Of a stretch of DNA of 64,000 nucleotides, positions 14,638-49,506 are shown in pieces (the first letter of the stretch is position 1; each line of letters opens with the position of its first letter). The stretch covers positions 12,456 to 76,455 of the forward strand of contig CBDCYO010000001.1 in the NCBI GenBank assembly GCA_965224255.1, written 5' to 3'. The notes under the pieces were generated by a model, which saw nothing but the letters and a program-made list of their open reading frames with translations, ran no database searches and was not told where the DNA came from. The stretch comes from Dehalococcoidia bacterium (lineage in GTDB: Bacteria; Chloroflexota; Dehalococcoidia; UBA6926). The position numbers were made by a program, and so were the translations under genes.

Positions 14638-14674
14638 CGCCTGCTGCCGACACGAGCATATGAGGGAGTGAGCG

Positions 14675-20731: not shown

Positions 20732-21630
20732 GGCGTTTGCACCATCTGTTGGTTGGGTATTGGCTCGGGACCGCAGGATGAAACCCATGCGGACGGGCGT
20801 TGCACGTAAGGTGGCGTAATCAGCAGTTCGAACGTTTTCTTCTTCTGTTGCAAGCTATATTGCAAACCAATATCCGAGATATTGCAGTCGGCGTAGAGCC
20901 CTCTGATTAGTTGGGAGTCATCGTATGAGGCTACCCATTGGACCGATTGCTGTCGCCGCAAGTACCGAGCGAGTTTGCCGTGGTCTTTTGTGTCGTAATC
21001 GTTCAAATACAGGCGACTCCCCTTCGAGACGTAAGGTGGATCCAAATACACGAAGACCTGCTTGCGGCGGTTACCTTTAGGAAGGTGGGTAGTCAAGAAT
21101 CGCAACGCGTCGTCATTGGTAACCTGGATTTGGTCTCGCTGTTCAGCAACTCGGACGATTCGTTCAGCGAGGGCTTGCCGGTTGAAACGCGCATCCATGC
21201 GCCACGTTCCAGTCTGGGAATATCCGCCTATCGGTGCCGAACCGAGCAGGATGCCAGAGCGATTGCACCGGTTCAAATAAAACGTGGCAAATCCGAGATC
21301 GAACGTGCTATGCAGGGTTGGTTGTAGGCAGATTTCTTTTTGCTTTCGCCATTGGTTTACGTTCAATTCAACCGACATGATCGCATCGGCAAATCGTTCA
21401 TGTTCGTTGAGAATAGCCTGCCAGAACGCGTAAATCTTCGGGTCGAGATCGTTCAGCAGTAACTCAGAAACCACGCCCTCGCGCAAAAGCCGAAGGGCTG
21501 CTCCGGCTCCGCCTGCAAACGGTTCGAAGTATCTACATTCCCTGAGACCGTTGGTTTCTATGAAACAACCCAATAGACCGGCCAGCGAACCCTTACCTCC
21601 CGGATAACGTAAAGGGCTATACGTTCTCAT
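20728..21630 (-). CDS. Dam-like (D12 class) N6-adenine DNA methyltransferase
   Basis: N-terminal LRYPGGK, FEPFAGGAG and DPPY motifs diagnostic of the Dam/MethyltransfD12 family. Confidence 0.9.
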   Translation of the reverse strand: MRTYSPLRYPGGKGSLAGLLGCFIETNGLRECRYFEPFAGGAGAALRLLREGVVSELLLNDLDPKIYAFWQAILNEHERFADAIMSVELNVNQWRKQKEICLQPTLHSTFDLGFATFYLNRCNRSGILLGSAPIGGYSQTGTWRMDARFNRQALAERIVRVAEQRDQIQVTNDDALRFLTTHLPKGNRRKQVFVYLDPPYVSKGSRLYLNDYDTKDHGKLARYLRRQQSVQWVASYDDSQLIRGLYADCNISDIGLQYSLQQKKKTFELLITPPYVQRPSAWVSSCGPEPIPNQQMVQTP

Positions 21631-30013: not shown

Positions 30014-31087
30014 ATGAGAGCACCATCAGGACAACAGGCAGTGCGGCTGGCCGAGGACAGGCTGGCTCAGATATTCAGCGCAATCGGCCAGGCTGATCAC
30101 TTCGACATCGAGCTGCACGCCAAAGACGGCGACGAACGCAGTCAATCGGATGCTGTCATCACCATTGCCGGCCGCAGCTTCGTGCTGGAATGCAAGAGTT
30201 CCGGTTCACTCGGCCCGGTAGCAATGGCAGTTAATCGACTGGCCCAAGTCCCGTCCAACTCCCCTGATCCGGTGATCCCGTTGCTGGCGGTCCCCCACAT
30301 GGGCGCGTCAGCACGGGCTTACTGTGAGCAGAACGGCGTGGCCTGGCTGGACCTCTCCGGCAACGGGAGAATCGTGGCGCCTGGGATGTTCTACCAAGAG
30401 GTGGGACACCCCAACCGATTCCCCCGGTCCGGCCGACCGGAAAGCGCCTTCGGTCCCAAGGGTTCCCGTATAACCAGGCAGCTTCTCAAGGATCCGGAAA
30501 CGCCGGTCCGTCAGCGCGACCTGGCTTCCAGCACCGGTTTGAACGAAGGCCACGTCAGCCGGATCGTCAACAAACTGGTGGATATGGATCTCGTGCAGCG
30601 CGGCGATGACGGCATCAGCGTTACTGACCAAAACCTTCTGCTTGACGCTTGGCGTGAGGAGTATCGCTTCGACCGGCATACCGTCATACGCGGGTATGTG
30701 GCGGCTAGGTCGGGCGACGCGTTGGCCCGTTCACTAGCTCAGAAACTGGACGAGTTCGAGATGTCTTATGCCGTAACCGGATTGCCAGCCGCCTGGTTGT
30801 GGACCCGGTACGCCGGGTTCCGGCTCGTCACCGCTTATCTCGCCGATTTCCCATCGGCTGGATTGATGACGGATCTGGGTTTTCGGGAAGAGCCACGCGG
30901 CGCCAACACGTGGCTGGTGATCCCCAACGACGAGGGGGTATTCCATGGAGCCAGCCAGGTAGACGGCGTACGATGCGTCCATCCGGTGCAGGCGTATCTG
31001 GACCTGAAGGACCATCCGGAGCGGTCACAGGAAGCTGCCGAAGAACTGAGGAGCCGGTTGCTCGCAGGAAGTCCCGTTGACCGCTAA
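30014..31087 (+). CDS. AbiEi-like Type IV TA antitoxin/regulator with an extra N-terminal PD-(D/E)xK-like domain
   Basis: Residues about 40-65 FDIELHAKDGDERSQSDAVITIAGRSFVLECKS (D...ExK). Central wHTH VRQRDLASSTGLNEGHVSRIVNKLVDMDLV. AbiEi-like C-terminal domain. Confidence 0.55.
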   Translation: MRAPSGQQAVRLAEDRLAQIFSAIGQADHFDIELHAKDGDERSQSDAVITIAGRSFVLECKSSGSLGPVAMAVNRLAQVPSNSPDPVIPLLAVPHMGASARAYCEQNGVAWLDLSGNGRIVAPGMFYQEVGHPNRFPRSGRPESAFGPKGSRITRQLLKDPETPVRQRDLASSTGLNEGHVSRIVNKLVDMDLVQRGDDGISVTDQNLLLDAWREEYRFDRHTVIRGYVAARSGDALARSLAQKLDEFEMSYAVTGLPAAWLWTRYAGFRLVTAYLADFPSAGLMTDLGFREEPRGANTWLVIPNDEGVFHGASQVDGVRCVHPVQAYLDLKDHPERSQEAAEELRSRLLAGSPVDR

Positions 31088-31919
31088 ACCGACCACATGG
31101 GACGGATATTCCAACGACCAGCTGGACATCGTCACCCGCGCCTGTCTCTACGTTTTCACCAAGCTGGGTGATCTGTGCGACGATGTTGTGGTGGTAGGCG
31201 GCTTGGTGCCTTACCTCCTGGTGGACCAGGATGACCCGCCGACATTGCTGGGGACCCACTCCGGCACCATGGACCTCGACCTGGGGCTGGCGCTCGCGAT
31301 CCTGGATGAACAGCGATATCAGGACTTGAGCGCACGGTTGCGCAGCGCGGGATTTTCTCCAGACGTGAACAGCGCCGGCAACACAACCCTGCAACGCTGG
31401 GTCACCAACTCGGGACCGCACGTAACCATAGACTTCCTGATTCCTCCGCAGGCTGCGAACGGCCAGCCAGGCAGACTTTTCCACATCGAAAACGACTTTG
31501 CCGCGATCATCACTGAGGGACTTGGCCTGGCCTTTCGCGACCGGCGATCGGTGACGTTATCGGGCTACACGCTTGCAGACGAGCGCGCCACCAGAGAGAT
31601 TCCGGTGTGCGGTCCGGGCGCTTTCACCGTGCTCAAGGCTCTGGCCTTTCGGAACCGGGGCGAAAACAAGGACGCCTACGACCTGCATTACGTGCTGAGC
31701 GGTCTGGGCATCAACGAAGTCGCCCACTGCCTGCGGTCGCTCTTGCCAGATGCCCGGGTCAAGAAAACGTTGACCATCATCGGGAACGAGTTCACCGTGC
31801 GCGACGCCACGGGACCGAGGCGGGTGGCTCAGTTCCTGACCAACGGTCCGGACGATGATATTCAGGCGGACGTCGTCGGCAATGCGGTTGCGCTGCTAAA
31901 CGCGATGGGAATGACTTAA
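31077..31919 (+). CDS. AbiEii/DUF1814-family nucleotidyltransferase toxin
   Basis: TTG start after AGGAAG RBS, overlapping upstream stop. VVVGGLVPYLL...GTMDLDL (GG...D.D) and KDAYDLHYVL signature blocks. Confidence 0.75.
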   Translation: MTAKPTTWDGYSNDQLDIVTRACLYVFTKLGDLCDDVVVVGGLVPYLLVDQDDPPTLLGTHSGTMDLDLGLALAILDEQRYQDLSARLRSAGFSPDVNSAGNTTLQRWVTNSGPHVTIDFLIPPQAANGQPGRLFHIENDFAAIITEGLGLAFRDRRSVTLSGYTLADERATREIPVCGPGAFTVLKALAFRNRGENKDAYDLHYVLSGLGINEVAHCLRSLLPDARVKKTLTIIGNEFTVRDATGPRRVAQFLTNGPDDDIQADVVGNAVALLNAMGMT

Positions 31920-32031: not shown

Positions 32032-33801
32032 GTGCTTCAGATTGCATCCGGCAAATTGTTCCGGAAGAAACCCGGCCAGCGCAATGAGTTGCGAGGCGTA
32101 CTGTACACGAACCTGCGGGTGTACGACAGAGTGATTGAGACTTCCGCAGGCCGTTTACTGTCCACGAGCAACCTGCACGACTCGAAAACGTTGGTGTACG
32201 AGTTAGCCGAACTCATCGAGGATGATCCCGGCCCAGGAGTGATCGCATCACACGGTATTGATCCGTACCTGAGCGACTTTGCAACCGTCGTATCCTTCGT
32301 CCTCAACGTGACCTGCACGCCGGACCACGACCTAACCCTTAGGTTGCTCAGCGGACGCCCCAGTCCGTCAGTTCAGTTCCCTCCTAACAAACTGGTCGCT
32401 CGGGCGTTCGATGACATGGTCTGGTGCCAGCCTCGGGACGAAATCCAGCTGTTCGAGATGGTTGCTCAACTCATCAGCCTGAAGCGCGAGAGTTTCCTGG
32501 CGGCCATGCGGTCCATACGCTCCTACGTCACCGGATTGCATAGGCTCGCCGATGACCATGAGCTGGCTTACACACTGCTGGTAGTAGCCATTGAGTCGCT
32601 GGCGCCGGAATTCGACGACTCCAATCCACAGTGGTCAGACTACGACCAGCGGAAGCGTCTTGCCATCGATAAAGCCCTGGTCGGTGCGGATGAGGGTTTG
32701 GCTACGCGAGTCAGAGAAGCTTTGCTGGCAACCGAGCACGTTGCGTTGGGCCGGCGCTTCCGTGAGTTCGCTCTGGAACACTTGGAGCCGTCCTACTTCC
32801 GGAAGGAAGCCCAAGGTTTGGTCAATCCCGTGGGATATTCCGACCTGGAAGTCGCGTTGCGGCAGGCATACAACTTGCGCTCCGACTATGTTCACGAACT
32901 AGCAGAACTACCCGCGATACTGAAGCTGCCGGGTTTCGGGGACACGGCTCCACTGGGTCGCCAGGCAGTGCTGACATTTCAAGGACTAGCTCGTCTGGCT
33001 CGCCATGTGATCGCGACATTCATCCAGAGACAACCCAAGGTTCACCGGGAAGCGTACGATTACCGGCTCGAACTGCCCGGCGTGGCAAGAGTCGAGCTGG
33101 AACCTCGATACTGGGTCGGTCGCGCTGACAACCTGCACAACAACGCGGGACGTCGACGCTTGGAAGGTTTCCTGAAACAGGCCACGGCGTGTCTGCTCCA
33201 AGGAGAAGGAGCTTCCGTTACTAACCTGAGGGACGTGCTGTTGGAAGTCGAGAGAATGCTCGCCCAGATGAGCGCTCACCAACGGCGGCCGTTCATCGCG
33301 CTCTACATCCTATTCAACACGATGGCATTGGGAAACGAGAAGATGGATCAATTTGAGGAGCTCACGAAGCACTACTGGGAGGAGTTTGCCCAGCCAGCGA
33401 TAGAGTCCATGCTGACGTTTCTGGCGTTGGGTATCGACCCCGAGTGGTCTCTCACCGAGCATCGCGAGGTCCACGACACTTACTTCCGGGAGAAGCACCA
33501 CAAGAACGGCCTGAGAGTTCCTCCCGCTCTGGAAGCAGGGCTCTGCCTGACTCTCGCCGAGCATTACCGCCTGGCAGGCGACGTTGTGCAGGCACGCGCA
33601 CTCATCACATCAGCTGCGGAGAATCATCCTGGCCACGCTCCTCTGCTCGACCTTGAGCAGAACTTCGACCCTGCCCAGGAGATCAACTGGATGAATACGG
33701 TCAGACCACCTCGGGTTGATGAAGATGACAAAGACCCTGCGGGAGGAACCGGCGACCGAGATGCGAAAGGGGCAACATCGGAGGTGTTCGGAAAACCATA
33801 A
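32032..33801 (+). CDS. large hypothetical protein with HEPN-like Rx4H motif
   Basis: GTG start after GGAGAAGGGA RBS. ALRQAYNLRSDYVHELAEL contains R-x4-H. No other recognisable domain. Confidence 0.5.
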   Translation: MLQIASGKLFRKKPGQRNELRGVLYTNLRVYDRVIETSAGRLLSTSNLHDSKTLVYELAELIEDDPGPGVIASHGIDPYLSDFATVVSFVLNVTCTPDHDLTLRLLSGRPSPSVQFPPNKLVARAFDDMVWCQPRDEIQLFEMVAQLISLKRESFLAAMRSIRSYVTGLHRLADDHELAYTLLVVAIESLAPEFDDSNPQWSDYDQRKRLAIDKALVGADEGLATRVREALLATEHVALGRRFREFALEHLEPSYFRKEAQGLVNPVGYSDLEVALRQAYNLRSDYVHELAELPAILKLPGFGDTAPLGRQAVLTFQGLARLARHVIATFIQRQPKVHREAYDYRLELPGVARVELEPRYWVGRADNLHNNAGRRRLEGFLKQATACLLQGEGASVTNLRDVLLEVERMLAQMSAHQRRPFIALYILFNTMALGNEKMDQFEELTKHYWEEFAQPAIESMLTFLALGIDPEWSLTEHREVHDTYFREKHHKNGLRVPPALEAGLCLTLAEHYRLAGDVVQARALITSAAENHPGHAPLLDLEQNFDPAQEINWMNTVRPPRVDEDDKDPAGGTGDRDAKGATSEVFGKP

Positions 33802-33815
33802 CCATTACCCAGCGC

Positions 33816-35336
33816 ATGGGATTTCCAGATGAAAAACAATGGTCAATAAGCCAGGAGGACAATTTGAACGAACCGCGTGTACCGGAAGCTATTGATCTGC
33901 AGCAGAAATGGCGACTCGGCGAGCAGTTGGGAGCCGGGGGATTTGCCGACGTCTATCGGGCCCGGTCGGGGAACGGAACATCGGCAGTGGTCAAGCTCGT
34001 CCGCAAGCTGCCCGGTACCCATCGCGAACTCCTGTTTGTGGATTTGGACGACGTGCCCAATGTCGTGCCCATCATCGACTGGGGTGAACACGACGACTAT
34101 TGGGTGCTGGTGATGCCGGAAGCAGAGAAGTCGCTCCGCGACCGCCTCATTGAAGTCGAAGGTCGGCTTGATACGTCCGAAGCCGTCCCGATACTCATTG
34201 ACGTCGCCCAGGCGCTTGTAGCCATGGAAAGCCGCGTCGTGCACCGGGACATCAAGCCGGAGAACATCCTCCTGCTGGATGGCAGCTGGCGCCTTGCGGA
34301 CTTCGGTATCGCCCGTTACGCCGAGGCCACCACCGCGCCGGACACGCTGAAGTACTCGATGTCCCGCGCCTACGCCGCGCCTGAGCAGTGGCGAGGCGAG
34401 AGGGCCAGCAGCGCTACGGACGTGTACGCTTTGGGGGTTGTGGCATATGAACTCCTGACGGGACAGCTTCCGTTCCAGGGAGTCGACCTGCGGCAACAGC
34501 ACTTGGAAGAGACCCCAGAGACCATCTCAGGCATTCCCGACAGGCTGCGATCCCTGGTGAACGAATGCTTGTACAAGGGCCCCGAAGCACGCCCACGGCC
34601 TCAGAATCTTCTGGCGCGGTTGCAGGGAAGTATGCAAGCGGCCTCCGCGGCAGCATCTCGCCTGCAACAGGCCAACGCTCTGGCCGTACAGAGAAAAGCG
34701 GAGGATGAGCGTCAACAGTCTGCAGCCCAAGTCGAAGCGGAGCGGCGGAGAACGCTTCGGGCCGCAGCCGAACAGTCGTTGGAAACCACTCTGGCCCTGC
34801 TCCATCAGCAGATTGCGGACAACGCGCCAGCAGTCCGTGTAGCAGGTTCCCCTCCCCGAAGCTGGGCTTTGAACGACGCCACTTTGCGCATGGGCACGAT
34901 CACGCTAGCTGTTCCGAAACCCGACGAACGTATGCAATTGCCGTTCGACGTAGTGGCCCATACATCGATCAGCCTCTCCGTTCCCCGAGACCGATACGGG
35001 TACACAGGCCGTTCCCACTCGTTGTGGTATTGCGACGCCCAGCACGAGGGAGGGTTCCGGTGGTACGAAACGGCCTTCATGATCACCTTTGGTGGGTCCG
35101 AAAGGCGGGGCTTTGCACCCTTCGATATGCACCCGGGCGATCCCGACGCAATGCTAGCCCTGTCGCCGGTGATGCATACTCACCAGGTGGCTTGGCCATT
35201 CACTCCGATTGACCAGGGGGACGAGGACGCTTTCATCGAACAGTGGATGGGGTGGATCGGCGAGGCCGCACAAAGCCAGATGCGCCGTCCGAGCACGCTA
35301 CCGGAAGTAAACCCCCAAGGTTCGTGGCGACGATGA
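33816..35336 (+). CDS. Hanks-type Ser/Thr protein kinase with ~230-aa C-terminal domain of unknown function
   Basis: LGAGGFADVY...AVVK, HRDIKPENILL, DFG, APE motifs. Alternative TTG start 33876 after GGAGGA. Confidence 0.85.
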   Translation: MGFPDEKQWSISQEDNLNEPRVPEAIDLQQKWRLGEQLGAGGFADVYRARSGNGTSAVVKLVRKLPGTHRELLFVDLDDVPNVVPIIDWGEHDDYWVLVMPEAEKSLRDRLIEVEGRLDTSEAVPILIDVAQALVAMESRVVHRDIKPENILLLDGSWRLADFGIARYAEATTAPDTLKYSMSRAYAAPEQWRGERASSATDVYALGVVAYELLTGQLPFQGVDLRQQHLEETPETISGIPDRLRSLVNECLYKGPEARPRPQNLLARLQGSMQAASAAASRLQQANALAVQRKAEDERQQSAAQVEAERRRTLRAAAEQSLETTLALLHQQIADNAPAVRVAGSPPRSWALNDATLRMGTITLAVPKPDERMQLPFDVVAHTSISLSVPRDRYGYTGRSHSLWYCDAQHEGGFRWYETAFMITFGGSERRGFAPFDMHPGDPDAMLALSPVMHTHQVAWPFTPIDQGDEDAFIEQWMGWIGEAAQSQMRRPSTLPEVNPQGSWRR

Positions 35337-35609
35337 TGTTGCAGGAGCGCATGACCGTTTACTGTAAGGACCCCAAGGCAAAGCGGGAAACAATACCCGG
35401 ACGTCCCTTTGGCCTCACCGGCCCGATCAGCGGGGGACCGTCGCCATCGCCGCCGTAAACCACGGTGATGAGACGGCGCGTAGCGAATGCTCGGGCGCGA
35501 TGGTCTGGCCCGACGCCAGTTCCACGCGGACGCCAGTTCCATGCTGACAAGCTGACAACGCGTGCAACGTCCGGCCAGCGGGGTGAGCGCCGGCCGGACG
35601 TGCGGGGTG

Positions 35610-36314
35610 CTACTGGACCCGAACGTTCAGCGACGGATTGTCGCCATCGCCGGGTGCAGTGATGGTGAAGTGGAGGTGGATATCGATGTGGACATCATCT
35701 CCGTCCCGGACCGTCACCGCTCCGCCGCTCACCGTCAGGGTCGCCGCCTTCGGCGGCTGGGCCGGTCTGGCGGCAGCGGGCCGCCGGTTCAGCTTCTCCA
35801 CCTCCTCGGAGATCAACCGCTTGCCCAGCTGCTTCTGCACCTGGTCCCCTTCGGGCAGGTCGGCAAGACTGGCCACCAGGTCGTCCAGACCCGACAGAAG
35901 CTTGACCTTGCTGCCCCGCATCTCCTCCAGGATGTCCGGGTCTGGGGTCATGTCGGTGAACACCATCACGGGGATGACGTAGCAGCCGAAGTCCAGGTCC
36001 TGGGACAGCCGGTCCTTGATGGACATGGCCGCATCCCAGGCCTCTTCCCGGACGTTGCCCATCGGCGTGACGGCGCCGTCCTCGGCGTGGCGGTACCATC
36101 CACCGTCTCGCACGGACCATTGGTCGTGCAGGAAGGTGAGAGCGTAGCGGCCGTTGCCCTCCAGCAGGACCAGGCAGTCGGGGGCGGGGTCGCCGGGGGC
36201 CACCAGGGGCCACCACAGCGCCTGGCCGGACCGGTCGCTCTGCTCAAACTGCTGGCAGATCTCGATCTCCTTCAGGGTCATGGGGCGGTTGTCATCGGTT
36301 TTCACGACTTTCAT
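35610..36314 (-). CDS. NERD-like domain protein, degenerate (lacks the conserved K), paralog of 38869-39585
   Basis: DCLVLLEGNGRYALTFLH aligns with DYAVWIEGLGRFALQVKG of the paralog; YVIPVMVFTDMTPDPDI vs YVIPVLMFPDMEPDLAI. Confidence 0.55.
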   Translation of the reverse strand: MKVVKTDDNRPMTLKEIEICQQFEQSDRSGQALWWPLVAPGDPAPDCLVLLEGNGRYALTFLHDQWSVRDGGWYRHAEDGAVTPMGNVREEAWDAAMSIKDRLSQDLDFGCYVIPVMVFTDMTPDPDILEEMRGSKVKLLSGLDDLVASLADLPEGDQVQKQLGKRLISEEVEKLNRRPAAARPAQPPKAATLTVSGGAVTVRDGDDVHIDIHLHFTITAPGDGDNPSLNVRVQ

Positions 36315-36324
36315 GTTTAATCAC

Positions 36325-36350
36325 CTTTTGTTGTTGTTGCGATTGTGATT
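36325..36350 (-). repeat. CA-rich tandem repeat in 5' leader of NERD-like gene ((CAA)n / CAATCACAATCG on the coding strand)
   Basis: + strand ttttgttgttgttgcgattgtgattgg immediately upstream (on - strand) of the RBS AAAAGGTG. Confidence 0.6.
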
Positions 36351-36564
36351 GGAAGGTTGCGCCGGGTCCGCAGAAACGGAAGCGGGCCGACCCGGGAAGG
36401 TCCCGGATCGGCCCGCGGCAGCTGCGGCCAGGCTTTGGATGGTGAATGATGGTGAATTGGGGGCAGAATGTCGCCCCCCTGCGGGTAGCGCTCGCCCAGC
36501 GGTCGGGGGCGGCCCCCGGGCCGTGGCATTGCCAGCGGTTTCATGACGCATGATGATTTTCACT

Positions 36565-36595
36565 TCCTTGTGGTGTGGTGTGGTGTGGTATGGAC
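36565..36595 (-). repeat. (CCACA)3-4 tandem repeat followed by AAGGAAG RBS-like sequence
   Basis: + strand cttgtggtgtggtgtggtgtggtatgg; RC CCACACCACACCACACCACAAGGAAGTGAAAATCATCATG. Confidence 0.6.
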
Positions 36596-36850
36596 GGGGC
36601 CTGCGCGACCTTTCCCGAGGGTTGGCAGTGCGTTCGCCAGCGCTCGGTTTTCACGTCCCACAGCCGTCCGTGGTCCGGGTCCGGGATCAGCCGGTACCGG
36701 AGCGCCAGGGGGAACGACGGCCACCATACAGAGGACGATGGCCAAGACCAGCGGCGTCCCGGTAAGACGCTGCGCCCCTGGTGACGTTGACCAGCTCGAC
36801 TGCAGGGACGACGGCGCAGATGCGGTTTCGCCGCCATCGGCGCGGCGCCC

Positions 36851-38587
36851 TCAGGACGGCACTTGCCCCAAATGCACGTCCACGCCCATCAGGCGCAGCA
36901 TCACCCGCCCCGTCACCGGCGCGGCCTCCCGCGTGGAGCCCTTCTCCCTGGGCTCGAACCGCTGGCGGGCCAGCGCCTCAATGTCCCTCTGGCACAGTTC
37001 TCTCCAACGGCGGGCCTCATCCCAGATGTCGCCAAAACGCTGGTGCACCGGACCACCGGCCGTGAGCACCAGCAGCCGCTCGGCTCGGGAGAAGGCCACG
37101 TAATGCTGGCGCATGTGGTCGAAGGCCGCAATGAGCCGGGCGGGCTCTGCGTCAGACCGGAGATAGTACGGCCCCAACGACCTGCCCACCGGATCCACGT
37201 TGGGATTGTGTAAATCAAGAGACCCCACGATCACCACCGGCCACTGCCTTCCCTTGGACTGGTGAATGGTCGTCACGGTCACCGCTCCTTGGGAGCGTCT
37301 CCGGCCTCGTTCCCCGCGACCGGAGCCAGCCGGCACGCAGCGCGCGGGAATGCCCGCATCATTCAGGGCGTCCAGATAGGGTCCGGACACATCATCCTGT
37401 ACGCTGTGCAACAGCAACGCCACCTGGTGATAACCCTCAATCACTCGGCGGCTTTTCAGAAACCGCAGCAGATCAGCCAGCTGCCTTCCCTCGTCGTCGG
37501 GGTCGCGCCCCTCGACGGCGATCACCGCCGGGTAATCGTCGTACCCGCACGGGTCGTGGGGAACTATGGTCTTGGCATGGCGGAAGGGCGCGCCTTCGGG
37601 ATCGGGGTTGGACCAGTCCGCCGACCACATCCACCCGTCATACGCCCTGACGATGTCGGGGTGGCTGCGGTAGTTGACGGTGAGCTCCACCACCCGGCAG
37701 TCGTGGAAGCGCTCGCCGAACCCGAGAATATTGCGCACCGTGGCGCCGCGGAAACGGTACAGGGACTGGTCCTCGTCGCCGACCACGCACAGGTTGCCGT
37801 GCGCTGCGGACAGCCGCGTCAGGATGCGTTCCTGCACGTGGCTGGTGTCCTGACACTCATCACACATCAGGTACCGTATGCCACCGGAGATTGCATCGGC
37901 GACGTCATCGTCATCCAGCAGCAGGTCTGCCCAGGCCTGCAGGTGGGCGAAGTCGGCGGCGTTCTCATCCAGCAGCAGGCGCGCGTAGCGCCGGTAGCAG
38001 CGGCCCACGGCGGCAATGAAGGAACTGCGGGAACGGGTCAGGTTCCGGGGATTGATCACCTCATCGCAGATCCGCTCGAAGTACTTGAGCGCGCCCTTCA
38101 CCACCGCCGGGGGACGTCGCCAGCCCCGGCCCTCCAGATCCAACATGTCGGGGCCGAAAACGTCGTCGAACCGCCGATGCAGCAGGTTCGCCTGCTGATC
38201 GTTGTCCAGCAGGCGGAAACCGCGCCTCAAACCCACCCGCTCGGGGTGTTCGGCCAGGAGCCGTCCGCACAGGCTGTGGATGGTGCACACGCGCGTGCGG
38301 CCGGTGCTGACTCCGTAATCCGCCGCGCTGGCCACGGCGTCAAACCTCTGGCGCAGCTCACCGGCCGCGTCCGCGTTGTAGGTGCACAGCAGCAACTCCT
38401 CCGGCCGGGCCAGCCCCCGCAATAGGATGTTGGCTCCCCGGAGCGCCAGCGTCAGGGTCTTGCCGGCGCCGGGACCGGCGACGCCCAGCGTGGGGCCGTC
38501 CAGGCTGCTGATCAGCTCCAGCTGTCCGGCGTCCAGCTGCGGGTAGAGGGACAAAATGACGGGCGCTACGCCCGCGGTGGTTTTCAT
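36851..38587 (-). CDS. UvrD/Rep-family SF1 DNA helicase (compact, 578 aa)
   Basis: GPGAGKT (I), TYNADAAGEL (Ia), CDECQDTS (II), VVGDEDQSLYRFRGA (III), NYRSHPDIV (IV), TIHQSKGRQWPVVIV (V), YVAFSRAERLLVLT (VI). Confidence 0.9.
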   Translation of the reverse strand: MKTTAGVAPVILSLYPQLDAGQLELISSLDGPTLGVAGPGAGKTLTLALRGANILLRGLARPEELLLCTYNADAAGELRQRFDAVASAADYGVSTGRTRVCTIHSLCGRLLAEHPERVGLRRGFRLLDNDQQANLLHRRFDDVFGPDMLDLEGRGWRRPPAVVKGALKYFERICDEVINPRNLTRSRSSFIAAVGRCYRRYARLLLDENAADFAHLQAWADLLLDDDDVADAISGGIRYLMCDECQDTSHVQERILTRLSAAHGNLCVVGDEDQSLYRFRGATVRNILGFGERFHDCRVVELTVNYRSHPDIVRAYDGWMWSADWSNPDPEGAPFRHAKTIVPHDPCGYDDYPAVIAVEGRDPDDEGRQLADLLRFLKSRRVIEGYHQVALLLHSVQDDVSGPYLDALNDAGIPARCVPAGSGRGERGRRRSQGAVTVTTIHQSKGRQWPVVIVGSLDLHNPNVDPVGRSLGPYYLRSDAEPARLIAAFDHMRQHYVAFSRAERLLVLTAGGPVHQRFGDIWDEARRWRELCQRDIEALARQRFEPREKGSTREAAPVTGRVMLRLMGVDVHLGQVPS

Positions 38588-38599
38588 ATCTGTTCACTC

Positions 38600-38640
38600 C
38601 AGAATGGGTTTTGGGATTGGTTTTGGGATTGAGGTTGGGG
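38600..38640 (-). repeat. 12-bp tandem repeat (CAATCCCAAAAC x2) in helicase 5' leader
   Basis: + strand gggttttgggattggttttgggattg; RC ...CAATCCCAAAACCAATCCCAAAACCC...ATG. Confidence 0.7.
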
Positions 38641-38868
38641 GGATGGCAACGACAGCCAATGGCAGCAACATCCAATGGCGGCGGCGGCGATGGGCACGCT
38701 GCCGGTCGGGTCGGGTCGGATGCGCCCGTCATCCGCATGGAAAAGCGCCGGTGACCATCGGCCGACCGGCGCCGACGGCGCACGCATGTGGGCGCCCGGC
38801 CGGACTGCGACGACGAGATGCCGCCTATGCGTTGGACCAGGGCGTGGACTTCCCGGCAATATGGGCAG

Positions 38869-39585
38869 TTATCCCACCGGTCGCACGCCGCGGGCGCCGG
38901 TCGTCGTGACATCCACACCGACCAACGTCAGCCGAAGCGTCCCGGTATATTGCCGTCGCTCTGAGCCGGAAACCGGCTGACCCGCCGCATCGGCACCGCA
39001 GCGCTTCCCGAACTTTTCCAGGTAGATCAACCCGTCGGTCACCGCATGCACCTCGCGGGCGATGCGGCCCATCCCCAGAGCCTCCGATACCCGGCGGCTC
39101 CGAACAATCTTCTCCAAGTCAGCCAACAGGTTGCCGACGCCCCAGATCACGTACACTCCCGTGCGCTTGGCCAATTGATTGATGGCCAGATCGGGCTCCA
39201 TGTCCGGAAACATCAACACCGGAATGACGTACGGGTTGTAGTGGGTTTCGGCCAGCTCCTTGATGTCGTCGTGCCAGTCCAACGCAGCCAGCTTGGCCTC
39301 GTCCAGCGGGCACGACTTGACCGGCTGGAGGCCGTCCCGGGTCTTCAAATACCACTCGCCGTCGATGAGCAAGTAGCGGCCGCCCTTCACCTGCAGCGCG
39401 AAGCGGCCCAGCCCTTCGATCCACACGGCGTAGTCAAGCTCGATGTGTTCATATCCCTTGCGCCACTCGTAATAGCAAAAGCCCCGGCGGTCGCTGCCTG
39501 CCAGGGCTTCGTAAACTCGTCTTTCCGCCTGCCGCTTCGGCTTCCTGCGGCGGCCGGACGGAAACTCTCGCGGGTACATTCTCAT
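38869..39585 (-). CDS. NERD (nuclease-related domain) protein
   Basis: AERRVYEALAG...IELDYAVWIEGLGRFALQVKGGRY fits the NERD pattern (E..V..L ... ID.vv ... iEvK). Confidence 0.75.
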   Translation of the reverse strand: MRMYPREFPSGRRRKPKRQAERRVYEALAGSDRRGFCYYEWRKGYEHIELDYAVWIEGLGRFALQVKGGRYLLIDGEWYLKTRDGLQPVKSCPLDEAKLAALDWHDDIKELAETHYNPYVIPVLMFPDMEPDLAINQLAKRTGVYVIWGVGNLLADLEKIVRSRRVSEALGMGRIAREVHAVTDGLIYLEKFGKRCGADAAGQPVSGSERRQYTGTLRLTLVGVDVTTTGARGVRPVG

Positions 39586-39748
39586 GGGTTATTGTTGCTC
39601 CTTTGATGCGCTGCTTTTGATATTGTCACGGGATGAGATATTCACTCGCCGACACCAACGCCCGACCAGAATGGCGTCTGGGTTGCTCGGTCCTAAACCG
39701 GTTTCGCGCTGTTCACCATCACCACGCCGCCCGAGGAGACGATGCTCC

Positions 39749-40475
39749 ATGCCTCTGAAACTGCTCAACTGGAATGTCGAGTGGGCCGCGGCCAAGTGGA
39801 AAGCGGCGGAGCTGCAGCGCCGCATTGCCCAGCACGCTGCGGACATCGTCTGTCTCACCGAGACCGACACCGCGCGTTTGGCGTTGACAGGCGGCTACTC
39901 CATCTGCGCCCAGGACAACTGGGGTCAACCCTTCCGAAAGGGTCAGGAGGGGCAGGCGGAAGGTCCTGCTGTGGTCCAGAGCGCCCTGGGAGGCCGTGGC
40001 TGCTGTTGGCCACGCATCGCTCCCGCCCGGGCGATTCGTGGCCGGCGTCACCCAAACCAGCGTCGGCGAGGTAACGGTGATCGGCGTCTGCATTCCCTAC
40101 TCCGGCTCGCGAGTGGGTACCCGTTGGGACCGGAAGATGTGGCAGGACCACGAGGAGTATCTGGCTGGCCTGGCCGGATTGCTGAAACGGGCTCCCAGAA
40201 CGCGCCTCGTCGTGGTGGGAGATTTCAACCAGCGGATCGGGCAACGCAGTGCAACGCCGCTCCGCCTCCGCGCAGCCCTCCAGTCCACCCTCGGGCCGAA
40301 CCTGTTGATCGCCACCGCGGGCCTGGGCTTTCAGGGGCGGAGAACCATCGACCACATCGCGTTGAGCCAAGACCTCGCCGCCGACTCCCTCGGCGTCATC
40401 AGCAACGTCCATCAGGACGGGAATCTGTCGGACCATTTCGGCGTTGTTGCCGACCTTTCCGTTCGGGGTATGTAA
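39749..40475 (+). pseudogene. endonuclease/exonuclease/phosphatase (EEP) family gene with a frameshift in a G-run (~39935-39950)
   Basis: N-terminal MPLKLLNWNVEW...IVCLTETD in one frame; C-terminal ...VIGVCIPYSG...VVVGDFNQ...TIDHIA...SDHFGVVADL in the other (ORF 39996-40475). Confidence 0.6.
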
Positions 40476-40698
40476 CAGAAGATCCCGGCCAGGAACGCAT
40501 GGCTATCGCCGGCTCCGCCACCAACACGACCAAACCGACGGCGTGCAGCGGCCATCCAGGGTACAACCGGATATCGGTTGCGCCGTGGGTTCGTTGATGG
40601 GCACGGTGCGGAGTTGCGGGTTCGGCTCCTGTTATCGTGCGCAGGGAGGCAACCGCGATGGCTGAGCGTAGCTACATCAGAGCATCGTTTGCGACAAC

Positions 40699-42882
40699 TT
40701 ACAGCCCGTTATCGTCCAGCAAATCTTCAATCTGCGCGAGACTTAACCCGGCTTCACGCTGGATTTTCCGCACGCACGACTTGGCGCCGTTCTCCACGTT
40801 GGGCGTGCCGAACGCCTCGTGCTCACGGCCTTGGAGAGCCGTCACCGCTTTGCGGATGTTGGACCAGCTCTGATGGGTCTGGCTGCGGATCGCCTTCACT
40901 CGTTCCCATCTCCCGTCACCGGCATCAACCAGATCCGTCAGCGACCCCGCAATGCGGGGCTTCAGCAGCGTGGCGCCTCGGGCCGTGGTTGATCGAGGCT
41001 GGCCACATTCAGGCAGCCGTGAAACGTCGCTGCCGTACTGTTGGTCATCGCCGACCATATCCGGCATCAGATCGGCCTCATGAGCCTGACGGTTCAGCAG
41101 ATGCATCGCTTTATCCCGTGAGCTGGTGAAAATCGCCCGCTTGTCCACCGGCCTGTTTTCCAGTTCGTTCAGCTCATCTTGCCACCGGACCAATTCCGAG
41201 CGCAGATTTCCTTCCCACTCACCGAATATACGACGCTCCTGCACCCGGTTCGGAGGGTCCGGCAAGGCGCCGACATACTCGCTGAACAATCTCTCCAGTT
41301 CATCGTCGTCGTTCAACGCCGATTGACGCTGGCTTATCCAACGGCGCAGTTCGTTCCTCCGGGCGTCGCTCGCCCCCGCGCTGCTCTGCCGCTCCGCCTC
41401 AAGGAGTTCCTTGAACAGGGCGGACAGCCGGTTGGCGAGTTCATCGTCAATCTCGGCGTCGCCGGGGAAAGTCATGGCGTCCTCCGGGTCATGCTGGCCA
41501 ACCAGTTCATCCAACGGCGGCGCGATGGGCAGGTGCGCCTGGATATGGGCGTCGATGTGGCAAAGGTCGCAGACCCGCGCGTGGCCATCGCCGCAGTGAC
41601 CCTCGTATTGCCAGCGTTTGTGAGCCCGCCACCGACCGCAGCGATTGCAGTCTTTGCCGAAGGCGTGCCCACAGCCCAGGCAGTGGTGGCTGGCGGCGGG
41701 AGATGCCACGCCACACCAGGATGTGGGACACCAGACCACCGGCGGTGCGCCCAATGCCGGGGCTCCCCGCGCTGCCAACGACCATTCACAGCGTTTCTCG
41801 GGCAGCCCGTGGGTCAAGGCGTTCGCGGCCAAATCCAGAATCAGACAATCGCCTCGATCAGGTTTGGGTCGCAGGCCTCGGCCCACCATCTGCAGGTAGA
41901 GCGCAAGGCTCAGCGTGGGTCGGGCGATGATAACGCAGGATGCGTCGGGCAGGTCGAACCCCTCGGTGGCGACAATAACGTTGACCAGGACTTTGACACT
42001 CCCGTCCCGAAATCCTGCGATCGCCCCGTCGCGTGCTCTGCGTTCGGTGTCGCCCAATATGACCACGGCGCGGACGCCGGCATCATTGAACACGGAGGTC
42101 AGATTGTGAGCGTGATCAACGGATACGGCATACGCGATGGTGGGGCGGTTGTTGGCATGCTGTCGCCAGAAGGCCAGCGCCCCGGCGGTCATTACGTCCG
42201 GGTCGTCCCGGTTGGCCTGCGCTATGCCGGCTTCGGTGTAATCGCCGAGGCGGTGATCTATCGCGCCACCCGAGATACGCCGCTCCACGACAGGCAACAA
42301 TACTCGGGCCGAGCACAGGAATGGAGGATCGTGAACCTGCAGGTCGGCAGTCTGTGGTCCACAGAGCAGGTCGTCAAACAGGTGGTCGAACCCCTCTGTT
42401 TCCGACCTGCGCCACGGGGTCGCGGTCATGCCGACGATGGGGCCGGGCCACTGCTCCATGGCCCGCGCCCAGCCTGCGGCGGCGGCGTGGTGAGCCTCGT
42501 CGATCACCATCAGGTCGTTCGGATTGTAACGGTTCCAGACCTGACGTCTGTCAGTGCGTCGACCTACGGTCTGAGCCATGAGAATGACGACCCCGCCGTC
42601 CATGGCCGGGGCGTCGGTTCCCGGTGGCCAGCGGATATTCGTCCTTGCCGAAACGCCGGCATCGGCCAGCATCCCACGGGTCTGCTCGGCCAGCTCCTTG
42701 CGGTGGGTGAGCCAGACCGCCTTGCGGTTATCGTCTAGCCAACGGGCAAGCAGGGCGCCGCCGATGACGGTCTTGCCGCCTCCGGTGGGTAATTAGAGCA
42801 TCAGCCGCCCTTTGGGATAACCAGCCAGGGCGTTCTGAACCCGGCTGAGAAGGTCCTGCTGATAGGGGCGGAGTTGGCGCAT
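40699..42882 (-). pseudogene. SF2 DEAD/DEAH-box (ResIII-like) helicase with Cys-rich zinc-finger region; in-frame TAA at codon ~29
   Basis: RC of 42760-42882 gives MRQLRPYQQDLL...GRLML*LPTGGGKT (Walker A after stop). Downstream: VIDEAHH, MTATP, VATEGFDLP, QMVGRGLR; CPTSWC...CLGCGH...CNRCG...CDLCH. Confidence 0.7.
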
Positions 42883-44330: not shown

Positions 44331-45017
44331 ATGGCAACTATCGGCTTCGTATCCTGGAAAGGCGGCACCGGCAAGACCCTCCTCGCGTTCAATACCGCCG
44401 AGAGGGCAACGGCTGCCGGCATCAAAACGGTTTTGTGCGACTTCGACCCTCAGCCCACATCCTTGCGTCAATGCCAACTCCGCGCCACCCACAGCCCCAA
44501 CGCTCCCAAGCTCAACGCCGTGAAAGGCTCATTGTCCGGAGACGGCATTGCGGCCCTCCAGAAGATGGCACTGACTGGCGACCAAGAACTCCTAGTCTGC
44601 GATATGCCCGGTGCCGATTCATTCACCATGGACCACGCCCTAGGCATCCTTGACCTGATCCTGATACCCATAACGGCCGCGCCCTACGAAATCATGATCA
44701 CGGCGAATCTGGTACATCGTGGCGTACAAAATGGCTGGAACATGGCCCTTGTACCCAATAACCTGCCGTCCATCAAGACCCGCCGCCAGCAGTTGCTAGT
44801 CACCCTAACTGGAATGGGCATCCCGATAGCGCCCGCAAGTTTGATCCGTCGTGTTACCCACTGGGACGCTATCCTGGCCGGCTTGGGAGTCTGCGAGTTC
44901 GCCCCCAATAGCCCGGCCGCCGCCGAGATGCAGGTGCTATGGGATTGGCTGTCCAAACAGATCAGTCTTATCGAAAACCAACAGCCTGATCTTAACGAGG
45001 AGATTCTCTATGCCTGA
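44331..45017 (+). CDS. parA: ParA/MinD-family partition ATPase
   Basis: GAAAGGAA RBS; deviant Walker A SWKGGTGKT; DFDPQ. Confidence 0.9.
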   Translation: MATIGFVSWKGGTGKTLLAFNTAERATAAGIKTVLCDFDPQPTSLRQCQLRATHSPNAPKLNAVKGSLSGDGIAALQKMALTGDQELLVCDMPGADSFTMDHALGILDLILIPITAAPYEIMITANLVHRGVQNGWNMALVPNNLPSIKTRRQQLLVTLTGMGIPIAPASLIRRVTHWDAILAGLGVCEFAPNSPAAAEMQVLWDWLSKQISLIENQQPDLNEEILYA

Positions 45018-46261: not shown

Positions 46262-47479
46262 ATGCGGCCAGCCATGACAACCCACCAGAACGGCAAAAGA
46301 GTTTCCGTAACGCAAAACGGCAAAACTTTTTCGGCTGACACAGAACCGCCGGCCAACACGGTGGCTGATCGGGTCTACGAGATAATCGACGACCTATCCG
46401 GCAAGGCGGGCAAGCCGGTGTGGTTTGCTCAGAAGGAACTTGCCGAGTTTCTAGGAGTAACGCCGCAGACACTGTCGCTGGCCATCAGCGAACTCAAAGC
46501 CGACGGGCTGATCAGCGTAACGCGAACGGGCAAGAAGTTCTCTTACATGGCTATCCGGACAGAGACACAACTCCCAATGATAGCAGCCATCACGGCCCAG
46601 CGGTCCCGTACGGAGTCAATAGCTGCAGAGGCCCCACCAAATGACGCGCCTGCCAATGATGCCAATCACGAGGAACCCACCAAAACCAAGCCGACAGCTT
46701 CGGAGACCATATGTGAAGATGACCTTAAGTTAACCATAAGTACAGATGAAGTACCGCCGAAGCAACTCCAAAGTTCACCTGAAGCTCAGCACGATGATGG
46801 GTTAAGGACCCAACAAAGCCACCGCAAGAAAGGCCGAAAGAACTCCCAATCATCGGGTAAATCAACACCGTTCAAGCCGATAACTGCAAAAAACGCAGAC
46901 GCTGATGAAATCTGGCGCAAAGCTATGACGAAAATCAAGTTGTCCCTACCGACAGACCTCTATGATTCGTTCTTGGCTCCTACAGCAGCCCTCAGCCTAA
47001 CGGAGAGCGAAATCACGATAGCAACACAGTCTGACTTCGCCAAGGAATGGCTCATGTTGCCACTCCACCACACCATCGCGGCCGAGGCGGTCATGTCGGT
47101 CACCAACCGCACACTAGAAGTCCGGTATGAAGTCGAACCAGATGCATGCTCGCCAATTCCACCAAAAGCTAATGATTCTGCACCACTGCAACGCACGGAC
47201 CTAGATTCGTCACCCTGCCCCTCATGCGGTGCAGGTACCATGCAGCCGACTACCTGGCAGAGTGTCATGGCGTTGCCAGGCGATACGTACTTTTGTCGCA
47301 ACACAGGCTCGTGCTCCAGGCTTTGGAATTCGATTGTCGGCGAGTTCTGGTCCCCACACCAAAGCGAGCTAGGCCCGACGGAAGTTAGAGACCGGTTGAA
47401 GCAGCAGCTGACGCAAGTCGCTGGGCCCACGCGCGCGCGCGCCGGCCCGGTTCCCGGTAACTTAAAGTTACCGTATTAA
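46262..47479 (+). CDS. replication-initiator-like protein: N-terminal wHTH, low-complexity linker, DnaA_N-like C-terminal segment
   Basis: VWFAQKELAEFLGVTPQTLSLAISELKADGLISV (HTH). EIWRKAMTKIKLSLPTDLYDSFLAPTAALSLTESEITIATQSDFAKEWL resembles the DnaA N-terminal domain. Lower GC. Confidence 0.55.
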   Translation: MRPAMTTHQNGKRVSVTQNGKTFSADTEPPANTVADRVYEIIDDLSGKAGKPVWFAQKELAEFLGVTPQTLSLAISELKADGLISVTRTGKKFSYMAIRTETQLPMIAAITAQRSRTESIAAEAPPNDAPANDANHEEPTKTKPTASETICEDDLKLTISTDEVPPKQLQSSPEAQHDDGLRTQQSHRKKGRKNSQSSGKSTPFKPITAKNADADEIWRKAMTKIKLSLPTDLYDSFLAPTAALSLTESEITIATQSDFAKEWLMLPLHHTIAAEAVMSVTNRTLEVRYEVEPDACSPIPPKANDSAPLQRTDLDSSPCPSCGAGTMQPTTWQSVMALPGDTYFCRNTGSCSRLWNSIVGEFWSPHQSELGPTEVRDRLKQQLTQVAGPTRARAGPVPGNLKLPY

Positions 47480-48114: not shown

Positions 48115-49506
48115 ATGGAAAACCTGAGTGATATCCTGCGCCGTACCGTCTCAAACCGGCCCAGTCGCCCGGTCGATGACACGGTTCATGACCAGCCTAC
48201 TCGTTCTGATGCCGGGAAGTGCCCGATCTGCAATGGAGTGGGATGGCTGACGACCAACGTTCCCGTGACCCACCCTGATTTCGGGCGGGTTTATCCGTGT
48301 GAATGTCAGGAGTCCGATCTCAACGGTGCGCGGCGTAGCAAAGCCCTGGAGCGTTACAGCCGGCTGGGAATTCTCCGAGAGTCTACTTTTGCTGCTGTGA
48401 ACCCCGCTGGTCCCACGGCTGACATTGTCAGCACCCGTGCCTTCGTCGCGGTTCTGGATGCGGCAGTCCGATATGCTGAGGATCCGTTCGGTTGGTTTAC
48501 CATCACTGGCCCCAGCGGCGCTGGCAAGACCTATTTGGCCGCTGCGATTGTCAACCGGCAGATTGACCTGGGCAACCCTGCTCTGCTGATCACCGCTGCT
48601 GACCTGTTGGATTACCTCAGGACCGGCTTTGACAACGACTACGAAGAGCCCAGCTTCGCCGATATGTTCGAACAGGTCCGCAATGCTTCGTTCCTGGCGT
48701 TGGATAACTTGCCGGTTAATCCCACGACGTCGTGGGGGCAGGACCGGTTGTTACAGCTGCTGGCGCACCGCCATTCGGTGCGATTGCCAACGGTGATCAC
48801 CGTGCGGGGTTCCCTTGACCAGGCGGATGACTTCCTCAGAACCCGCCTCAATACTGCTGACGGCTTCTCCAAGGTGTACAGCTTGGGCCGCCCGGTAAAT
48901 GTCGCCATGCGCAAACTGGGAGAGATACCCGCGGCTATGGCGGACCGCATGACGTTCGATGCTTTCCGGACCGATGGTGGCGGCATATTCACTCCCGAGG
49001 AGGCCGCCGCTTTTGCGGTCGCCCACGCCTACGTCAAACGCTGGGCCCATGCCGAACGTCCGAATGGATGGCTGATGCTCATGGGGCCCTATGGAGTGGG
49101 CAAGACCCACCTGGCCGTGGCGGCTGCCGTGGTGCGCCGGAATCTGGGCGATGATGTGTACTTTTCCACCGTCGCCAATTTGCTGGACCACCTACGGGCT
49201 GCTTATAGTCCTGATAGCGCCGTCGCTCACGCTGACCTGCTGATGCGGATCAGCAGCGCCCAGTTGCTGGTGCTGGATGACCTGGGAGCGGAGCGCAACA
49301 CGCCCTTCGCCGAGGATAAGCTCTTCCAGATCGTCAATCACCGTTATGAGGAGCGTCTGCCCACCATCATCACCACGTCGGACCGGCTGTCCGACATTGA
49401 TGCGGCCCGCCCGCGTATCGCGTCGCGCCTCCTGGACAAGATGGTGGTTACCGTGCTGCCACTGCAGGGGCCGGACTATCGTAGACACAGCGTTCCCGGG
49501 GGATAA
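48115..49506 (+). CDS. tandem DnaC/IstB-like AAA+ ATPase (two modules) with N-terminal Cys4 zinc-binding motif; putative helicase loader
   Basis: CPICNGVGW...YPCEC. Module 1 GPSGAGKTYLAAAI with degenerate Walker B FLALDNL. Module 2 GPYGVGKTHLAVAA with LLVLDDLG. Confidence 0.8.
   Translation: MENLSDILRRTVSNRPSRPVDDTVHDQPTRSDAGKCPICNGVGWLTTNVPVTHPDFGRVYPCECQESDLNGARRSKALERYSRLGILRESTFAAVNPAGPTADIVSTRAFVAVLDAAVRYAEDPFGWFTITGPSGAGKTYLAAAIVNRQIDLGNPALLITAADLLDYLRTGFDNDYEEPSFADMFEQVRNASFLALDNLPVNPTTSWGQDRLLQLLAHRHSVRLPTVITVRGSLDQADDFLRTRLNTADGFSKVYSLGRPVNVAMRKLGEIPAAMADRMTFDAFRTDGGGIFTPEEAAAFAVAHAYVKRWAHAERPNGWLMLMGPYGVGKTHLAVAAAVVRRNLGDDVYFSTVANLLDHLRAAYSPDSAVAHADLLMRISSAQLLVLDDLGAERNTPFAEDKLFQIVNHRYEERLPTIITTSDRLSDIDAARPRIASRLLDKMVVTVLPLQGPDYRRHSVPGG

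Follow-up and report, generated by a model that had tools for sequence, protein, structure and literature searches.

What would a bacterium gain from keeping two related nuclease-like genes on either side of a helicase gene if one of the two has lost its catalytic residues? This question is raised by three adjacent genes, termed A, B and C in the following, which occupy positions 35610-39585 on the minus strand of a 64,000-nucleotide stretch of DNA from a Dehalococcoidia bacterium (assembly GCA_965224255.1, contig CBDCYO010000001.1, positions 12,456 to 76,455); this whole stretch is referred to as the window. An earlier note on this DNA, made from the sequence alone, had placed three same-strand genes in this interval, and the open reading frames (ORFs) are found exactly there. 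Gene A (38869-39585, minus strand) encodes a protein of 238 amino acids which, judged by its ORF, its family link, its fold and its invariant residues, is a putative divergent nuclease of the NERD or PD-(D/E)xK type. Gene B (36851-38587, minus strand) codes for a compact UvrD/PcrA-like helicase of superfamily 1A (SF1A) with 578 amino acids, whose motifs I to VI are complete and whose C-terminal half is shortened and divergent. Gene C (35610-36314, minus strand; 234 amino acids) is a catalytically degenerate NERD paralogue in which the position of the QxK motif is taken by T-F-L and which carries a longer beta-rich tail. Gaps of 281 bp and 536 bp separate A from B and B from C in the window. 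The motifs which the earlier note quoted for the two NERD proteins, ...IEGLGRFALQVKG for A and ...LEGNGRYALTFLH for C, are present in the translations.

A pattern scan restricted to one genome per species retrieved 48 loci from 26 genomes, all of them metagenome-assembled genomes of Dehalococcoidia or SAR202 with up to four diverged copies each (individual loci are given L numbers below). According to tblastn the order and orientation A-B-C is kept in about 36 of these 48 loci, in 22 of which all three ORFs are intact, and the lowest identities encountered among the A-B-C loci amount to about 53% for A, about 54% for B and about 35% for C. As the same order recurs so often, the arrangement is far beyond chance, and the conservation of the neighbourhood, which the earlier note had proposed to check, identifies the trio as a conserved unit. 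Between clades C diverges most, with 35-47% identity compared to 53-75% for A. A distant trio from another metagenome (L058; A 34%, B 51% identity) again contains a degenerate third NERD gene. Among the remaining loci, a first group shows frameshifts or insertions of insertion sequences (IS) in B or C; B is deleted in L021 and L031, and only A is left in L024, L037, L044 and L047. Decay by frameshift or IS insertion thus affects many copies and, together with the copy number, represents the turnover to be expected for defence or accessory genes.

The borders of the conserved DNA were obtained by blastn of the window against L003-L010, copies which reside in other contexts. On the DNA level the homologous stretch reaches from 39587-39605, 2-20 nt before the start codon of A, to 35425-35531, 80-185 nt past C, so that the cassette extends over 35425-39605 (minus strand), while the genes flanking it vary from copy to copy. 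Since the homology borders are sharp whereas the flanks change, the three genes travel as one unit between variable contexts rich in mobilome and defence genes. We rejected a transposon as explanation, since the borders of the cassette are not marked by any convincing terminal repeats, inverted or direct, and its interior contains no HUH or transposase gene. We likewise discarded an origin from phages or plasmids, as homologues of A are absent from 72,556 PLSDB plasmids, from 50,697 INPHARED phage genomes and from the IMG/VR contigs. In the pair L013 and L014 the number of synonymous substitutions per synonymous site (dS) amounts to 0.38 for A, 0.10 for B and 0.03 for C, and this inequality among the three genes of one pair indicates recombination, or mosaicism, between cassettes.

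When all ORFs within 10 kb on either side of 45 loci were clustered, no fourth gene beyond A, B and C turned out to be conserved in more than 10 loci. The commonest neighbour clusters are ParA (10 loci), an IstB-like helper ATPase of IS21 (9 loci) and Fic (7 loci). Elsewhere, recurrent neighbours comprise IS transposases, integrases, a Ser/Thr kinase similar to PD-T4-6/mad6, a type I restriction endonuclease, a DrmD-like protein and PDC-S01. The Fic gene (423 amino acids, PADLOC model SoFic, 4.8e-76) is situated about 1.4 kb upstream of A on the opposite strand, that is divergently beside A, in L005, L007, L016, L017 and L018, which belong to different cassette clades. Next to the window copy, genes for a kinase, an endonuclease/exonuclease/phosphatase (EEP) protein and an SNF2-type helicase were considered as further members of the system and discarded on the basis of this clustering.

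The paralogy of A and C claimed in the earlier note is evident from a direct BLASTP comparison (28% identity over 170 amino acids, E 7e-16). Their assignment to the NERD family is less direct. Neither protein has any match to the Pfam (including NERD), NCBIfam, PADLOC or PHROGs models, even at E<=10, and sequence and profile searches of the PDB gave chance-level matches alone. Yet, if 74 diverse members of the A/C family are scanned singly, 16 of them match PF08378 (NERD), the only family to turn up repeatedly. Two of these, P0323 (1.1e-8, 36 bits) and P0241 (3.5e-8, 34 bits), do so over the full length and above the gathering cut-off of 22.1, and P0323 in turn shares 35% identity with A (E 9e-27) and 27% with C (E 4e-10). 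Because such relatives match PF08378 and resemble A and C, the two proteins would constitute a divergent NERD subfamily overlooked by standard domain scans, a membership which is established only transitively. The label chosen in the earlier note is therefore right by way of the relatives, but neither A nor C matches PF08378 itself. The predicted structure of A shows, upon fold comparison, a restriction-endonuclease-like alpha/beta arrangement, that is a PD-(D/E)xK nuclease fold; the structure model of C is too poor for a fold search (predicted local distance difference test score, pLDDT, 52).

A search with A alone retrieved 556 clusters at 90% identity. A profile built from A and C finds 560 clusters (50% identity) at E<=1e-3 and 356 at E<=1e-10. 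Nearly all family members are stand-alone proteins of 150-300 amino acids, and no NERD-helicase fusion occurs among the 150 best representatives, none of which exceeds 377 amino acids. In L053 (2022-5655) and L059 (6001-8681), three short ORFs without annotation, each of about 160-200 amino acids, come after the remote solo NERD relatives P0323 and P0231; some of these ORFs may be spurious. The beta-rich tail, which the earlier note took for an acquisition of C, does not distinguish this protein from A, as A possesses a variable C-terminal beta-hairpin tail that can be aligned with it (LRLTLVGVDVTTT in comparison with ATLTVSGGAVTVR), and in other subfamilies of A the C-terminal tails are even longer. 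A stretch of 36 nt located 200 nt downstream of C (35417-35452) is 78% identical to the 3' end of C (35617-35652) and encodes 'GDGDGPPLIGPV' where the C tail reads 'GDGDNPSLNVRV'. It lies within the homology common to the window, L007 and L008 and looks like the relic of an older C terminus left behind by tail replacement or recombination.

The difference between A and C becomes apparent from their putative active sites, which we compared in 23 non-redundant A-B-C trios. In A this site consists of E21, D51 and Q65-x-K67, the latter embedded in the strictly conserved sequence GRFALQVKGG, and E, D, Q and K are invariant in 23/23 trios. In C the lysine is replaced by L, M, P or I and the Q/E is lost in every one of the 23, while the aspartate is kept in 14. 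The earlier note had ascribed the conserved core to the upstream NERD protein and the loss of the catalytic lysine to the downstream one, and what it saw in a single locus thus holds throughout. In the NERD nuclease ZwsA the equivalent E, D, E and K have been mutated, and the lysine mutant was inactive (bioRxiv 10.64898/2026.04.06.716636). In the wider family, 46 of the 74 members contain E-D-(Q/E)-x-K, 31 of them as QxK and 15 as ExK, and 21 of the 23 sequences devoid of the lysine fall into one neighbour-joining clade without any lysine-bearing member. This clade makes the asymmetry between A and C appear ancient and points to one old inactivation event after which the inactivated copy was retained. 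Ratios of non-synonymous to synonymous substitution (dN/dS) range from 0.28 to 0.60 for A and from 0.26 to 0.47 for B. For C most values lie between 0.27 and 0.73; a single pair at very low divergence yields 1.36. Purifying selection acts on A, B and C, and C, given these ratios, is a maintained gene and not a pseudogene.

Gene B is matched by the Pfam families UvrD-helicase (1.2e-51), AAA_19, UvrD_C and UvrD_C_2. As the core residues of its motifs I, Ia, II (DExQD), III, IV, V and VI are invariant in 23/23 orthologues, B should be an active SF1A motor. Its scores against the NCBIfam equivalogs (PcrA 173.6 bits, cut-off 911; UvrD 126.8 bits, cut-off 1144; Rep 134.7 bits, cut-off 951) remain five to nine times below the cut-offs, and the alignment is confined to residues 14-315 for these models and to residues 17-316 for UvrD and PcrA in the PDB. 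Scores this far below the equivalog cut-offs mark B as a protein other than a housekeeping PcrA, UvrD or Rep orthologue. A helicase grouping with the housekeeping enzymes next to NERD genes not conserved with it, the outcome which the earlier note had named as speaking against its proposal, is hence not what we observe: B reaches 127-174 bits where more than 900 are called for, and the NERD genes are conserved together with it. Similarity to AddA (82 bits, cut-off 708), RecB (79 bits, cut-off 696) and AdnB is weak in NCBIfam and PDB searches, and B is devoid of a nuclease domain. The search of PADLOC v2, also proposed in the earlier note, is informative for B only, since A and C do not match any of its models. 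The best matches of B are GajB (to 5e-41) and a DRT-associated helicase, both limited to the N-terminal half; the C-terminal half resembles GajB weakly (1.5e-6), and generic PcrA/UvrD proteins match B at least as well as GajB does (6e-51). The model C3a187, which describes a fused NERD+UvrD protein, is matched with 4.8e-10. The best 25 of the 43 PADLOC matches of B comprise GajB, RTasHel and C3a187, with no Nhi model among them.

Hairpins are found downstream of all three genes. The GC-rich hairpin after A (38744-38773, minus strand) lies some 95 nt past the stop codon of A and is followed by UUUUCC. Its 13-bp stem is part of a structure of -28 kcal/mol, which compared to shuffled sequences (z -1.2) is not significant alone; stem and T-run are kept in the window as well as in L005-L009, L011-L014, L022 and L033, and the position of the hairpin is shared by different clades. 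Far more stable is the 16-bp GC hairpin after B (36382-36416, minus strand), which is located some 70 nt before the start codon of C, precedes a T-rich tract and is matched in a terminator scan (-48.6 kcal/mol, z -6.3, 0/200 shuffles equally stable). Every trio clade has a hairpin in this position, the stem of which is of a completely different sequence in L038, L041, L042 and L051, and RNAalifold yields a partial consensus only, as the divergent clade aligns poorly. Hence, this hairpin is conserved in position and is not a proven RNA element. A third, 14-bp GC hairpin, an inverted repeat (35567-35601, minus strand; fold z -3.1), directly follows the C stop codon. No Rfam family is present in 34500-41000. 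An additional ORF upstream of C was rejected, the conserved 120 nt at this place being explained by the hairpin. Over all loci the gaps measure 52-319 bp between A and B and 68-536 bp between B and C. Both B and C have their own Shine-Dalgarno sequence and a CA-rich leader directly before the start codon (B 38600-38645, C 36320-36360, both minus strand), that of B containing a tandem AATCCCAAAAC which is partly conserved in other clades. The inter-genic hairpins look like terminators or attenuators, and the leaders may be translation-initiation or regulatory elements.

A joint function of the three genes is favoured by their synteny, their unit-like transfer, the asymmetry of A and C, the invariant helicase motifs and the dN/dS values below 1. 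What this function might be we infer from the genomic context, and with somewhat more confidence than doubt we regard A-B-C as a self-contained nuclease-helicase cassette directed against invading DNA, be it of phages, plasmids or other mobile elements. Defence is favoured by the contexts rich in defence and mobilome genes, by the turnover of the copies and by the presence of NERD and UvrD-like proteins in known defence systems. In such a cassette A, B and C would form one complex, in which B would load at ends or nicks of the DNA or at replication intermediates and then translocate or unwind, A would cut the DNA exposed by B, and C, as a subunit without catalysis of its own, would pair with A or B. 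One option is an A:C heterodimer which, owing to its single active site, would nick the DNA and thereby create the entry point for B, comparable to MutH/UvrD or GajA/GajB. In the other option, C would resemble RecC or AddB in being a pseudo-nuclease which guides the DNA or senses the target; a role in specificity or sensing fits C as the component which diverges fastest between clades. Through the hairpins after each gene the three subunits would be expressed separately or at graded levels. That C might be a regulator or a decoy, as supposed in the earlier note, is a conjecture.

Several observations weigh against a three-component defence system. First, the association with defence genes is here inseparable from plain residence in mobilome hot spots, and the presence of several diverged copies per genome is equally typical of addiction modules. 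Second, gaps of 52-536 bp with terminator-like hairpins are atypical of tightly co-translated complexes. Third, a divergent branch formed by L048-L050 and L052 consists of A (37-48% identity) and B (49-54%) without C; in these four loci a third NERD-like gene is not detectable even with the family hidden Markov model, and C is dispensable in this branch. Fourth, NERD genes which stand alone, with no helicase gene beside them, occur among the remote members of the family. Finally, A has a Q where the canonical ExK motif has an E; as its relatives use either residue, nuclease activity of A with this exchange is plausible.

How does the cassette compare with systems already described? Gabija consists of GajA, an OLD-family ATPase with a TOPRIM nickase, and the UvrD-like helicase GajB. 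The cassette shares with it a UvrD-like protein with a separately encoded nuclease, and the N-terminal half of B matches GajB; it differs in that no ORF for a GajA-like ATPase/TOPRIM protein is present and the partners of the helicase are NERD proteins. By analogy with Gabija, a mechanism in which nicking precedes helicase loading is plausible. NERD proteins or UvrD-like helicases are part of established defence systems, namely Nhi-like, Mokosh I and Gabija, and PF08378 is the family given for the 'Nhi-like' systems (PMC10952713). Nhi itself, for nuclease-helicase immunity, goes back to Bari et al. 2022, as cited in PMC10732053 and PMC10952713. The likeness to Nhi, from which the earlier note derived its designation, consists in the combination of a nuclease domain with an SF1 helicase; anti-phage immunity is a property of Nhi. 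In contrast to the single fused polypeptide of Nhi, nuclease and helicase are encoded by separate ORFs in all loci, with a hairpin between them and an inactive NERD paralogue in addition. With the single polypeptide missing and no Nhi model among the best 25 PADLOC matches of B, 'Nhi-like' is retained here as a functional analogy and not as a statement of membership.

The same two domain families meet in defence contexts in the fused NERD-UvrD proteins, represented by C3a187 and by a NERD-helicase fusion associated with UG34 (PMC9226505), and NERD and UvrD have also been listed among putative auxiliary genes of CRISPR systems (PMC10910872). In the manner of a Rosetta stone, the fusions hint that NERD proteins and UvrD-like helicases work together. 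They differ from the cassette in that A and C do not match the model C3a187 and in that the fusions are devoid of a second, dead NERD domain. TALON, which is largely found in Chloroflexota, combines a YprA-like helicase with a NERD nuclease, TPR-CSD and TBP (PMC12458937). It resembles the cassette as a rare system of the same phylum in which a NERD nuclease is accompanied by a separately encoded helicase; its helicase is, however, of the SF2 YprA-like and not of the SF1 UvrD-like type, TPR-CSD and TBP genes are not found here, and TALON is without a NERD pseudo-paralogue. No description of a trio made up of NERD protein, UvrD-like helicase and dead NERD protein was found in the searchable literature, and PADLOC v2 has no model matching A or C, in agreement with the view of the earlier note that a split trio with an asymmetric NERD pair is undescribed. 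We advance only tentatively, as rather less than probable, that the trio is an unrecognised three-component immune system in which C is an obligatory pseudo-nuclease, either within an A:C nickase licensing B or as a fast-evolving sensor, and in which expression is graded by the hairpins. Equally tentative is the corollary that the trio may correspond to Nhi or to RecBCD-type enzymes in a split, modular form, known so far from Dehalococcoidia and SAR202.

AddAB, AdnAB and RecBCD carry a RecB-family nuclease fused to the motor and are encoded by single-copy core genes; for enzymes of this kind the NCBIfam scores of B fall short of the cut-offs by a factor of 10-30. The composition of the cassette, a UvrD-like motor, a PD-(D/E)xK nuclease and a dead nuclease-fold partner, mirrors that of RecBCD and AddAB, where a dead paralogous module (RecC, or the helicase lobe of AddB) guides the DNA; RecC and this AddB lobe are a precedent for a functional pseudo-enzyme subunit. 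A-B-C might accordingly be conceived as an end-processing module of DNA repair or recombination, a split analogue of AddAB, AdnAB or RecBCD which serves the host or a carrier element, with B as the motor, A as the nuclease and C as an inactive nuclease-fold subunit like RecC or AddB. The weak similarity of B to AddA, RecB and AdnB agrees with this, as does the occurrence of NERD proteins among repair-associated genes in Deinococcus (PMC6300522). Nevertheless, we consider such a repair function unlikely, both as a whole and with respect to the roles it assigns to the three proteins. The nuclease of the trio is of the NERD and not of the RecB family and is encoded by a gene of its own, the AddA and RecB scores of B stay far below the family cut-offs, and the presence of multiple, partly decayed copies at variable positions, with IS elements, integrases and defence genes in the flanks, is unlike core repair.

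A different explanation is suggested by the surroundings of the window copy. The window contains a ParB-like gene (19631-20788, minus strand), a ParA-like gene (44331-45017, plus strand), a gene combining a winged helix-turn-helix (wHTH) with DnaA_N (46262-47479, plus strand) and a DnaC/IstB-like AAA+ gene (48115-49506, plus strand), a set which suggests partition and replication initiation and hence that the region is part of an element resembling a plasmid or an integrative and conjugative element (ICE). In 10 loci a ParA gene of the same cluster lies upstream of A at a distance of no more than 10 kb. The cassette could thus be a selfish or addiction module in which a toxic nuclease A is neutralised or titrated by C, acting as antitoxin or as dominant-negative heterodimer partner, and modulated by B; or it could serve competition between mobile genetic elements or anti-defence on behalf of a plasmid or ICE. 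Besides this plasmid- or ICE-like backbone, the multiple diverged and frequently decayed copies resemble toxin-antitoxin families, a pair of active and inactive paralogues is plausible as toxin and antidote, and the unequal dS values within the cassette attest to recombination and mosaicism. However, no A homologue exists in the plasmid, phage and virus collections searched, and C is last in order, behind a terminator-like hairpin, whereas an antitoxin is usually encoded first and produced in excess. In addition, the A+B variant without C implies that A is not obligatorily toxic alone, and a helicase of 578 amino acids is superfluous for a simple toxin-antitoxin pair. An addiction module or a service to the carrier element, in both forms and including the role of C as antitoxin, therefore appears improbable to us, slightly more so than a repair function. 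That the three genes are mere neighbours without joint function, or C a decaying duplicate, to which the long intergenic gaps with terminator-like hairpins and the existence of solo NERD relatives might lend colour, is largely refuted by synteny and selection and deserves next to no credence, with order and orientation kept over about 36 loci with C down to 35% identity, dN/dS of C well below 1 in most pairs and common cassette borders in changing flanks.

Further genes of the window agree with the impression of a defence island on or beside a plasmid- or ICE-like backbone, which the region looks like. A complete operon for type I restriction-modification (11255-18088, plus strand) encodes HsdM (721 amino acids), HsdS (406) and HsdR (1137). 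The AbiEi-like (wHTH + AbiEi_2) and AbiEii-like nucleotidyltransferase genes at 30014-31919 (plus strand) are, by sequence, a module of type IV toxin-antitoxin or abortive infection, which we call divergent since both scores are weak. An unannotated ORF of 589 amino acids (32032-33801, plus strand), without a match in Pfam, PADLOC or PHROGs, precedes the Ser/Thr kinase gene (33816-35336, plus strand), whose best PADLOC matches are mad6 (7e-53) and PD-T4-6. This pair of genes is kept in L002 and L006 and may be a two-gene, kinase-based defence candidate.

On the other side of the cassette, divergent upstream of A, the EEP gene (39750-40475, plus strand) appears to be frameshifted. ORF 39584-40597 supplies the frame of its N-terminus (MPLKLLNWNVEW...), and ORF 39996-40475, which covers only positions 115-225 of the Pfam EEP profile, contains the C-terminal half. 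The segment made up of EEP and the 5' part of A is 82-90% identical in L006, L012, L013 and L019; in L012 and L013, B and C are more diverged than this segment, a further case of mosaicism. The adjacent SNF2/ResIII-type helicase ORF (40699-42672, minus strand; 657 amino acids) matches the ResIII profile from position 98 only and is without the N-terminal part of the ATPase. It resembles the helicases of the PADLOC systems type IV mREase, PbeA and DpdF and probably represents a defence gene which has been truncated or frameshifted.

Should A-B-C indeed be an immune system, it would represent a further nuclease-helicase architecture, with an inactive paralogue of its effector nuclease as the conserved third component, and it would make the function of a pseudo-enzyme in bacterial immunity tractable. 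A function would be assigned to an unannotated family of about 560 clusters (50% identity), most of them without a Pfam match, an A/C-type NERD subfamily which standard domain scans miss entirely. For the large-genome soil and marine Dehalococcoidia and SAR202, uncultured and poorly catalogued as they are, it would mean a start on their defence repertoire.

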